A stretch of DNA of 64,000 nt. It comes from Eledone cirrhosa. Taxonomy: Eukaryota. Positions 2,196 through 36,150 of this stretch are shown in pieces. The stretch is from the NCBI GenBank assembly GCA_964016885.1, contig OZ024754.1:27776001-27840000 (forward strand), written 5' to 3'. A program made the position numbers and the translations under genes. How positions within the stretch are numbered: the first letter of the stretch is position 1; every line of letters begins with the position of its first letter. Below the pieces are notes generated by a model. It was given only the letters and a program-made list of their open reading frames with translations, was not told the DNA's origin and searched no databases.

Positions 2196-2243
2196 ATTAT
2201 TATTATTATTATTATTATTATTATTATTATTGTTATTGTTATT
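2196..2243. repeat. (TAA)n tract: tail/target of Dong-like copy A1, left edge of the array
   Basis: (ATT)n with two GTT interruptions abutting the element 3' end. Confidence 0.95.
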
Positions 2244-5200
2244 CCTTGAATCTCAGTCATTGATGTTGGTTAACTGGAAAGTCCGTTGGATTGAATATCA
2301 AGCCACTACCTGCAGCCTCAGATATTCAGGACGTATCGGAGGGTTCTTGCTGTTCCAAGCAAGCATGCCTTTTGAAGCGTTCCAAAAAGCGTGAAGGGGC
2401 CGATTTTCTTTAACCATCCCTGGAAACCTTTGGAGGTAGTCCCCAGTGCGCCTATGACAATCGGGATCACTTTGACTTCATGGCAGTTCCAAATCCTTTT
2501 CACCTCCCACTTTAGGTCCTGGTATCGGTTAATTTTCTCCCTCTCCTTCTCTTGCACTCTCGTGTCGAACGGGCAGGCCACATCCACAATCAGGCACGAT
2601 CTTTTTTCTTTGTCCATAACCACCAGGTCAGGTCTATTGTGTTCCAGTTTTTTGTCCGTCTGTATCCTAAAATCCCACAGCACCTTCACCTGACTGTTCT
2701 CCATCACCGCCTCTGGCCTATGCTCATACCATTTCTCAGAATGTGGTAGATTGTTTACTTTGCACAGGTGCCAGTGGATCACCCTGCCCATCACATCGTG
2801 TCTCCAGCCCTTATAGTGGGTCTGGGCTAGGTGTTTACACTCGGACACAATGTGAGCCACAGTCTCCTCTCTCTCTCCACAGATCCTGCACAGTGGGCTA
2901 GCCTCCTCCTTGTAGATATGGTGCTTCAACCACTTCGTTTTGAGGGCCTGCTCCTGCGCAGCCATTAGCATTCCTTCTGTAGCCTTTTTGAGGTCTCCTC
3001 TTCTCAACCAGTTCCATGTCTGTGGATCTCTAAATTCAGTTTTCTCAAAGAAGGTACTATGAAGGGATTTTCCCTTAAGGCTGCTCTTCCTCCTTGATGT
3101 TATTTCCTCCTTGGACATCCCCTGGCCTACTGTCCCCTCCTTCAGTACAGTTCTGAGCATTGGCTCCTTACTATAGGTCACGTATTTGTATAGGTTGTTT
3201 TTCTCCATCTGAACACAGTCCTCTATGCTGATAAGACCTCTTCCACCCTCAGATCTCCTTAGGTAGAGTCTATCGACATCACTCCTCTTGTGGAACATGT
3301 TGTAGATAGTCAATAGCTTCCTAGTCTTCCTATCCATTTCTTTTTGTTCAGCAACATTCCATCTCAGAATTCCCGCACTGTACCTAATAATAGACACAGC
3401 TCGGGAATTTACTGCGCTTATGGCATTTCTGCTGTTCAGATGTGACTTCAATACGCTCCTTACTCTCCGAATGTATTCAGTTCTTAACAATTCCTTCATT
3501 TTTTTGTTCTTTATGCCATCAGCCTCCAGAACGCCCAAATACTTGTATCCTTCCTCAGAGTCAATTTCCTTTATCATCTCACCTGTTGGTATCTGGATCC
3601 CGTTACTTCTGCTCAACCTACCCCTCTTCATCACAATGACTCCACATTTACCAATACCAAACTGCATACATATATCACTGCTGAAAATACGGACAGTGTC
3701 AACAAGCACATCCAACTCCTTCTCACTTTTCCCGAAGAGCTTAAGATCGTCCATGAAGAGGAGGTGATTGATGGTAAGCTCTCCCCTTCCCAACTTGTAT
3801 CCTGCTCTCACTTTTCGCAGCATAATGGTCAAGGGCATCAGGGCAAGGACAAACAACAGAGGGGACAGGCTATCTCCCTGGAAGATACCTCTCTTGATCT
3901 TCACGCTTCCCAAGGATACTCCAGTTGATGTCAACTCTGTCTCCCAGGACCCCATACTCCTGCCCAGCAACTGTCTGATGTTATCTGCCACCCTGAAGAC
4001 CTCCAGGCTTTTGGTGATCCAGGAATGAGGCACCATGTCAAATGCCTTTCTGTAGTCTATCCATCCCATGGCAAGATCAGTGTGTCTCCTCCTGCAATTC
4101 CCCATTACCATCTTATCAATAAGCAACTGGTCCTTTGTACCACGTGACTTCTTTCGGTATCCTTTCTGTTCGTCCGGTAACAAGTTGTTTGTGTGGAGGT
4201 GATGGTAGATTTCCTCAGACACAATGCTCGTCAACAGTTTCCACATTACGGGCAGACATGTGATAGGTCTATAGTTGGTAACATCATTACCCTTGATTCG
4301 GTCTTTCATTATCAGAACTGTGGTACCTTTTGTCAACCACTCTGGCACCTCACCCGACACCAAGCAGTCATTGAACATGGCCGTCAGCTTCGGGTGGAGG
4401 GATGTTAAATGTCTAATCCAATACCCCTGCACACCATCTGGGCCTGGTGATTTCCAGTTGGTTAGTTTTTTGGCTTGCCCCTTAAGAGTTTCAACTGTGA
4501 TACTCAAATCAGTCTGTTGTTGTGCCTTCTCACCGATCTCCCTCTGTACTGTCTCAATCCACCCTGCCTGGGCATTGTGTCTAACATCCTGCTCCCATAT
4601 TCCTCTCCAGAATGTTTTAGCTTGTTCCGCCCCAGGGATCAAGTCGTTGCCTCTTTCTTTCCCCTCAAGCTGTCCAAACAGCATCTTCTGGTTGTTGTCG
4701 AACATGCGGTTCTGTTTATACTGACTGACTCTGTTCTCGTATCGCCTGATTTTGGCACTCTTTGCTACAATGCGTTGCTTCAATTCCTCTATGATAATAT
4801 TTAGCTTTTTACTCCTAGTTTTGTATTTTATTTCCAGTCTATTTTTAGTGCCTATGTTTTTTAGTGTCCCATTCAGTAGTGACTCAAGCTTTCCTATGTC
4901 ATTTCTCATTTCCCCGATTTGCCCACTCAGTCGCTTCTTCCACCACGGCTCTGCTCTTTCTTGTCTGTTGTTTCCTCTCGCTTTTATACCAAGTAGTTTC
5001 CTCACCGTATTTGCTGTTGCTTTGAGGATATTGTTGCACTGGTGAAGACTCCTCGCCTCAAGGTATGGGATGACTTTGTTTACCTTAGCTGTTGTTTCTT
5101 TTAACTTTTTCCTGTCTACAAATCTTAGGTTCATAGGTCTCCCACTATCATTGTTCAATTCATCTACCACTAGATTTAGGATGTCAACCGAATCTTGTCC

Positions 5201-35944: not shown

Positions 35945-35964
35945 TTGTTATTATTATTATTATT

Positions 35965-36150
35965 CTTGGAGTCTCAGTCATTTATGTTATTTAACTGGAA
36001 AGTTTGTTGAAATGAATATCAAGCCACTACTTGAGGCCTCAGATATTCAAGACGTATCGGAGGGTTCTTGCTGTTCCCAGCAACCATGCCTTTTGAAGTG
36101 TTCCAAAAAGCAGGGCTGGGCTAATCTTCTTTATCATCCTTGGAAACTCT
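35965..36150 (-). mobile_element. Dong-like copy A8, short diverged 3' fragment; right edge of the array
   Basis: Matches the 3' UTR and last codons of family A with many substitutions. Confidence 0.85.

Follow-up and report, generated by a model that had tools for sequence, protein, structure and literature searches.

Two retrotransposon classes nested with opposite polarity on a TAA/TTA repeat in Eledone cirrhosa

How do two unrelated classes of retrotransposon come to lie end to end on one simple repeat, each class in a single orientation? The question is posed by a 64,000-nucleotide stretch of the Eledone cirrhosa genome (contig OZ024754.1, positions 27,776,001 to 27,840,000; hereafter the window), where self-BLAST, the open reading frame (ORF) list, Pfam and readings of the junctions resolve positions 2197-36152 into eleven copies of retrotransposons without long terminal repeats (non-LTR), placed end to end. 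All nine copies with a reverse transcriptase (RT) and a restriction-like endonuclease (RLE), eight of family A and one of family B, are on the minus strand, and both copies with an apurinic/apyrimidinic-type endonuclease (APE) and RT, which form family T, are on the plus strand. This opposite polarity of A/B and T on TAA/TTA is a rule across the genome. We consider it very likely that the array is a nest of real copies that arose from repeated target-primed reverse transcription (TPRT) into TAA/TTA by families of the two classes with predicted opposite-strand nicking. The first-pass annotation of this DNA had already described the eleven copies, the (TTA)n tracts at most junctions, the strand of each class and the intact ORFs of A1, A2 and T1, and all of these descriptions hold, T1 being short only of about 32 nt of its 3' untranslated region (UTR).

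Anatomy of the array

From left to right the copies are A1, A2, T1, A3, B1, A4, A5, A6, T2, A7 and A8. They are listed here with their junctions, in window coordinates; tracts are given no strand, and the last line lies outside the array.

2197-2243: left-edge tract, (TTA)11 plus TTG-interrupted units, at the A1 3' tail
2244-6775, minus: A1, full-length RLE-type element with a 5' UTR of about 1.05 kb
5710-2318, minus: A1 ORF, 1130 amino acids, with RT, CCHC knuckle and PD-(x12)-D RLE motif
6776-6806: TTA tract, A1 head to A2 tail
6807-11559, minus: A2, 98% identical to A1, with ORF 10273-6881 open
11560-11573: (TTA)4, A2/T1 head-to-head junction
11574-17572, plus: T1, APE-type, lacking the final ~32 nt of its 3' UTR
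11787-13886, plus: T1 ORF1, open, with CCHC knuckle
13922-17341, plus: T1 ORF2, open, with APE, RT and Cys motif
17576-21070, minus: A3, older A subfamily, 89.5% identical to A1, frameshifted, lacking ~900 nt of its 3' end
21068-21191: (CTT)13 plus (TTA)29, A3 head to B1 tail
21192-25795, minus: B1, second RLE family, frameshifted, 5' head absent
25796-27687, minus: A4, fragment with neither end, 94% identical to A1
27688-27761: (TTA)20 tract, truncated 5' end of A4 against A5 tail
27762-28964, minus: A5, with an internal deletion, 94% identical to A1
28965-29031: (TTA)3 plus (TTA)17 tract, A5/A6 junction
29032-29512, minus: A6, 5'-truncated, 90.5% identical to A1
29513-29580: (TTA)22, A6/T2 head-to-head junction
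29581-35276, plus: T2, full-length APE-type copy with broken ORFs
35277-35307: ATT tract, T2/A7 tail-to-tail junction
35308-35944, minus: A7, 5'-truncated, 98% identical to A1
35945-35964: (TTA)5 tract, A7/A8 junction
35965-36152, minus: A8, short and the most diverged A copy (85% identical to A1), with no tract at the right edge
58094-58310, plus: copy of about 180 nt resembling a short interspersed nuclear element (SINE), flanked by 16-20 bp direct repeats that start with ATTAT, as in T

At least four TTA units are present at nine of the 12 junctions (eight of the ten internal ones and the left edge). As a background, the 10-mer ATTATTATTA starts at one of the 29,940 window positions outside the array, and at none on the opposite strand. 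The remaining three (T1/A3, B1/A4 and the right edge) are without a tract, apparently through deletion or truncation. At T1/A3 just TTAT is left between two elements whose 3' ends are incomplete, and at B1/A4 the 5' head of B1 and the 3' end of A4 are both gone; we infer later deletions at these two sites because both neighbours lack their adjoining ends. A2/T1 and A6/T2 are the only head-to-head junctions in the array. Seven of the nine tracts sit at 3' ends of A or B copies and may be the copies' own tails, so tail and target cannot be told apart from the window by itself.

The A copies range from 85 to 98% identity to A1, each with its own truncation point, and self-BLAST found no repeated multi-element unit in the window. 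This identity spread and the distinct breakpoints favour separate insertions as the origin of the window copies. In the 5' UTR of A2, about 330 nt are duplicated internally and the first ~100 nt are absent. The 3' end of T2 is a polyadenylation-like hexamer without poly(A).

Runs of (CTT)n often stand between an A or B head and the TTA tract (window 21068-21106 and three other loci), and slippage at the GAA-rich start of the element may account for them. Beyond the array, at positions 36493-64000, long tracts of (AT)n, (GT)n and mixed dinucleotides are numerous (the one at 38427-39595 extends over some 1.2 kb), and the ORFs of at least 150 amino acids in that part mostly overlap dinucleotide repeats.

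Polarity and target sites across the genome

Genome-wide counts cover 2,996 Mb in 1,796 contigs, with element ends counted by exact patterns. Sets chosen by similarity (T 3' ends, T heads and A heads) each include the window's own copy, position-ordered samples are the first 30 exact matches on the contig labelled C1, and the polarity tally takes in all fetched loci, de-duplicated by flank. In that tally, 166 of 182 T ends are TTA-sense, with one in both senses, 15 in neither and none TAA-only, and 149 of 153 A/B ends are TAA-sense, with four in neither sense and none TTA-only. Flanks and orientation, which the first-pass annotation had proposed to tabulate, are thus not random, and no end has the opposite sense only. 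The whole genome holds 3,235 exact T 3' ends, 2,627 of which continue into ATTATTATTA, and 3,911 exact A 3' ends. A strand bias among T matches was rejected as a biological signal, the whole counts being 1,703 forward and 1,532 reverse.

The same polarity is seen locus by locus. ATT follows the best-matching T 3' ends at 30/30 loci, and an ATT tract precedes T2-type heads (30/30) and T1-type heads (21/21); among A heads, 29 of 30 adjoin a (TAA)n run that reads in the sense of the element, and the remaining one is an inverted junction. When both ends of a copy are considered, ATT flanks both sides of all 15 full-length T1 copies, and TAA flanks both sides of all 17 A copies, out of 20, whose 3' end could be located. 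Every member of the position-ordered T sample starts with ATT, 26 of them with at least three units, and the next element is an antisense A/B tail in 13, a same-sense T in six, a SINE in three and none in eight; a sense A/B tail is never found there. The corresponding A sample has at least three TAA units in 30/30, followed by an antisense T end (nine), a same-sense A/B element (nine), an antisense SINE-like piece (three) or no element (nine), and a TAA run lies within 45 nt of 13 of the 14 truncated 5' ends that are visible.

C1 has further mixed arrays of the same polarity, with lengths of some 28 kb, at least 24 kb and some 32 kb, in regions that were picked for clustered matches and not at random; these comparable arrays rule out the window locus as unique. 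Forty A heads among the matches listed are 99-100% identical to A1, and 40 T1 heads among the matches listed are 99.7-100% identical. Such near-identity is a clear sign of recent activity in the A and T1 families, as had been suggested from their intact ORFs.

The target of T can be approached from copies in less repetitive surroundings. Among truncated T copies with both ends in view (n=17; one further row was dropped, its end not being found), a TAA run is seen at the 5' junction in 0/17. Three of these copies are found outside pure repeats and are flanked by duplications of 15, 12 and 14 bp that each begin with ATTAT, so that ATTAT was present in the DNA before insertion. The T target appears to be Y|ATTAT (Y, pyrimidine) with a 12-15 bp duplication. 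The earlier proposal of a TAA microsatellite as common target is amended here, in that the target of T itself looks like this short motif rather than the microsatellite as such.

Next to T there is, again and again, a SINE-like element some 180-190 nt long; exact matches to a single 44-nt segment of this element number 22,425 in the genome. In a position-ordered sample, 28/30 copies continue into A plus ATTAT, and 17/30 have a duplication of 9-20 bp (or of repeat-ambiguous length) from the tail onward, each of the 17 preceded by C/T. The site would read Y|ATTAT on the top strand and ATAAT/R on the bottom strand (R, purine), which is a T-purine step. The APE nuclease of L1 cuts such a step. The same is described for the APE nuclease of TRAS1 in passages of PMC7265360. 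It is probable that the SINE is mobilised by T or a T-like family. Its head is one that we take to be tRNA-like, although ARAGORN found no transfer RNA in 5/5 loci. At one further locus, an ATT tract precedes another kind of tRNA-like SINE head, next to an A head.

Element families and their relatives

The two open ORFs of T1 encode 699 (ORF1) and 1139 (ORF2) amino acids. Pfam finds Exo_endo_phos, RVT_1 and zf-RVT in ORF2, which retains the APE catalytic motifs and the RT motifs, and its closest solved relative is L1 ORF2p (E 1e-52, versus 1e-21 for R2). ORF1 has a C-x2-C-x4-H-x4-C knuckle in both T1 and T2 and no Transposase_22 match, and an RNA recognition motif (RRM) was not detected in it. 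For Tx1-clade ORF1, the criterion given in passages of PMC5203782 is an RRM/CCHC type and not Transposase_22. Homologue searches returned unnamed relatives and no named Tx1 reference, apart from which a short piece of ORF2 is 64% identical, over 5% of the query, to a protein labelled Octopus sinensis; a metagenome scan yielded no flanks of distant T relatives. That T operates like Tx1 is well supported, its clade name being drawn from architecture and target rather than from an RT tree.

T1 and T2 are 96% identical at the DNA level in the ORF2 region, their ORF1 cores share 51% amino acid identity, and their 5' UTRs differ. Comparison of 11574-13900 with 29581-31630 suggests module swapping among T-like families. 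At one other locus a T2-type front is fused to the ORF2 region common to both. The same tracts also hold, at seven loci, older T-like families with 67-82% identity to T1, and most of the ends read carry a similar 3' motif followed by ATT.

The open ORFs of A1 and A2 encode 1130 amino acids, counted from Met. RVT_1 spans residues 487-738 and is followed by a C-x2-C-x8-H-x4-C knuckle, and sequence and alignment place the RLE signature of RHD, PD-x12-D and K-x2-K/R-Y motifs in A and B. A second phmmer domain of A aligns with the C-terminal region of R2. The predicted structure of the A protein (pLDDT, a per-residue confidence score, of 87; 60-sequence alignment) has R2 structures as its best matches (E 8e-37), and its top seven Foldseek matches are all R2 proteins. 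No CCHH or CCHC motif precedes the RT of A or B, and no Pfam zinc-finger match was obtained there. Residues 47-117 of A form a four-helix block, confidently modelled and kept in homologues; Pfam gave no Myb match in the A N terminus, and the block folded alone as a single sequence gave a low-confidence model (pLDDT 46.5). A diverged Myb/SANT-like domain is described for the R4/Dong N terminus in passages of PMC7998251. B shares 25-45% amino acid identity with A, depending on the segment, and A and T align convincingly over the RT core alone (25.5%). Named Dong/R4 references were absent among the A homologues returned by the searches. The Dong/R4-like operation of A and B is nonetheless well supported, with the clade label taken, as for T, from architecture and target and not from an RT tree.

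The 5' heads of these elements have features of their own. Bombyx Dong begins with a self-cleaving ribozyme like that of hepatitis delta virus (HDV), according to passages of PMC3774820, and a 5' HDV-like ribozyme has likewise been demonstrated in Ascaris R4. At the A, B and T heads, Rfam gave no ribozyme match at E<=1; an HDV-like descriptor, which had no positive control, fitted none of 12 heads in full and no shuffled sequence either. An L3-like heptamer occurs in four of five A/B-type heads. Four full-length B-type copies have 5' ends 70-76% identical to the first ~365 nt of A, and their first ~100 nt are near-identical to A despite the distant ORFs.

A and T heads also have a motif in common, GCTC..GTAAG or a variant and then a T-rich run, at 6680-6775 (minus), 11574-11670 (plus) and 29581-29680 (plus). 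Between A1 and T1 its score is reached in 2/5,000 shuffles, and in four other pairs in 16-127/5,000; candidate roles are those of a promoter element, splice-donor-like site or ribozyme segment. Exactly two genome sites, 10843-11559 of the window and 90.21 Mb of C1, have, head-to-head with T1, an A copy whose 5' UTR contains ~330-nt units in tandem and whose 5' end is shortened as in A2. At the shortened end there is an acceptor-like AG. The idea of a mini-intron in the A head was rejected, a spliced copy having 0 exact-pattern matches, as was a common alternative start, given just the two occurrences genome-wide.

The clades that these families resemble are known from molluscs. A (TAA)n target is usual for Dong in insects, molluscs and cnidarians (PMC7998251, in the passages at hand), and the TAA target in molluscs is also given in part of PMC3812793. 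The recently active long interspersed nuclear elements (LINEs) of Octopus vulgaris include Dong-R4 and L1-Tx1 (PMC13282606), and the word 'target' is absent from the text and one supplement of that paper. PMC8967140, PMC9115989 and PMC10294476 name Dong or Tx1 families in passages without target data.

Origin of the arrays and comparison with known systems

Under the TPRT model, the first nick falls on the strand opposite to the sense of the element. For this reason the RLE of A and B would nick and prime on the TTA strand, and the APE of T would nick and prime on the TAA strand, at or near 5'-ATAAT/R-3'. A second cut made by T 11-20 nt away would duplicate some 4-6 repeat units. Each insertion would then leave usable tract at both ends, as the (TAA)n tails of A/B or the duplications of T and the SINE, and arrays would feed themselves because tails and duplications regenerate the target. 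Later deletions and some tandem duplication would remodel the arrays, and the abundant ATT-ended SINE would borrow the machinery of T or a T-like family. A more elaborate version is a three-party, self-renewing system, in which a Tx1-like nuclease with a Y|ATTAT specificity not reported before would spread T and the SINE of more than 22,000 copies and thereby seed ATT tracts, Dong-like RLE elements would colonise the other strand, and exchange or convergence would have given both classes a common 5' head module, serving as promoter or RNA-processing signal; we find this version rather doubtful. The first-pass annotation had pictured one microsatellite expanded into a niche for two classes. Sharing with opposite polarity extends genome-wide, but the expansion of one microsatellite is not borne out, since most tracts can be element-made tails or duplications and no empty allele was seen.

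Several observations weigh against repeated TPRT into TAA/TTA as set out here. Just 7/17 truncated T copies have at least three ATT units at the 5' junction, and 608 of the 3,235 T 3' ends are without a 10-nt ATT run; T specificity is consequently leaky, directed at a short motif present in many copies within microsatellites. Should the RNA end pair with the target, the junctions would not reveal the exact nick. The SINE, unlike T, is mostly outside microsatellites (5/30 copies with at least three units), its tail similarity to T is in register but weak (shuffles reach the score in 804/5,000 for T2 and 54/5,000 for an older T-like end), and at one locus a tract separates T from a SINE in antisense orientation to it. 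To these are added evident DNA-level duplication in some arrays, and the lack of an empty allele and of a spanning long read, the available reads (contigs of one sample, small-share runs and restriction-site-associated DNA sequencing) having skipped the tract at 2187-2249 and none having crossed the junction; the small-share runs carry no weight as evidence.

The duplications bear on the possibility that arrays grew mostly at the DNA level, by unequal exchange or tandem duplication seeded at tracts, from few independent insertions. At 188.05-188.08 Mb of a second contig, C2, five T1 copies in tandem differ by 0-1 nt over 1.78 kb, and the imperfect spacer between them, identical each time, agrees with the flank on the left but not with the one on the right; C1 has two instances of a T+B unit in which B is truncated alike; and two junctions within the window are of the deletion type. 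Growth of this kind would not fix the polarity of dispersed single copies, however, and in the window the A copies differ in identity and truncation point, T1 and T2 differ in heads and ORF1, and no multi-element unit recurs. We regard it as an improbable origin for most of the array. Nor is it at all probable that T lacks target specificity and carries (ATT)n as its own encoded tail and leader, so that niche sharing is only apparent. The tract that always precedes full-length heads, set against fewer than three units upstream in 10/17 truncated copies, would fit such a view, as would a copy with five ATT units at its 3' end within an (AT)n context. Yet duplications beginning with ATTAT place the motif in pre-existing DNA, the 13/30 position-ordered T copies at an A/B tail are far above random insertion, and seven truncated copies still adjoin tracts.

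Families this abundant and nearly identical could also be joined wrongly at TAA tracts during assembly, and the available reads, none of them long, did not cross the left tract. Against an artefact are the divergence and breakpoints that each copy has of its own, the three tract-free junctions, the strict polarity, the duplications and the similar arrays on several large contigs; in addition, the left flank at 1294-2186 is reproduced with no difference by two runs from a single sample. Misassembly is the explanation to which we give the least credence. Repeated TPRT on opposite strands remains the reading that we prefer.

In these arrays RLE and APE nucleases offer a natural, high-copy case of convergence on opposite strands of a single 3-bp repeat, and with open ORFs of both classes, strand choice and target recognition are directly testable. 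They add an AT-only target to the Tx1-type repertoire, indicate a likely partner for an abundant SINE and provide a possible reason for LINE clustering and (TAA)n recurrence in such genomes. In practice they also matter to assembly, to the calling of insertions and to microsatellite markers.

The single themes, which are Dong on TAA, Tx1 on microsatellites and the polarity of TRAS/SART, are all known; their RLE/APE pairing on TAA did not turn up in the searched literature, and the SINE link comes in addition. We found no report there of an ATT-targeting Tx1 or of Dong/Tx1 co-nesting; most subscription papers are outside it, and Kojima and Fujiwara 2004, Repbase or the supplements of PMC4494074 may record it. 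Like Dong of the R4/Dong clade (Bombyx mori Dong, DongAg, DongBg), A and B have a single ORF with RT, CCHC knuckle and RLE, a (TAA)n target and no N-terminal zinc fingers. Unlike Dong, the two RLE families here co-occur and nest with an APE element, and unlike Bombyx Dong, no HDV-like ribozyme was fitted at their heads. Among microsatellite Tx1 families, Kibi is found on TC, Koshi on TTC and crocodilian Tx1 on TTCC/TTTC (passages of PMC4494074 and PMC3812793). Like these, T has two ORFs, prefers a simple repeat and encodes in ORF2 an APE-RT protein of the L1 group; it differs in its AT-only target (Y|ATTAT, ATT repeats), the lack of poly(A) at the 3' junction and a tract common to an RLE family. 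The SINE recalls SINEU of crocodilians, which is assigned to Tx1-Mar by target preference and whose tandem copies sandwich the duplication (PMC4494074, in part). Both are linked to a Tx1-type partner by a common target preference, here as a likely partner; the crocodilian pair has a DNA-transposon target and an snRNA-derived (small nuclear RNA) SINE head, whereas here the target is Y|ATTAT and the SINE head looks tRNA-like.

Unrelated nuclease classes are also found together on other multicopy targets. R1 and R2 both reside in 28S ribosomal DNA (rDNA), and Keno likewise resides in the U2 snRNA gene. Utopia is an RLE element in the U2 snRNA gene, as described in passages of PMC4640811. The present case is like R2/R1 and Utopia/Keno in that unrelated nuclease classes use one multicopy target, but those pairs use distinct sites in a structured gene and the elements here use two strands of a 3-bp repeat. 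TRAS1 and SART1 are APE-type elements of the R1 clade that reside on the telomeric TTAGG repeat. In Bombyx mori they insert into this one tandem repeat in opposite directions, and the endonuclease sets the site (PMC7265360, in part). This precedent of one repeat and opposite polarity limits the surprise of our finding, as both systems have two families in opposite directions on one tandem repeat. The system described here differs from TRAS1/SART1 in that it combines an RLE with an APE nuclease, and in that the repeat is a dispersed microsatellite, apparently regenerated by the elements themselves.

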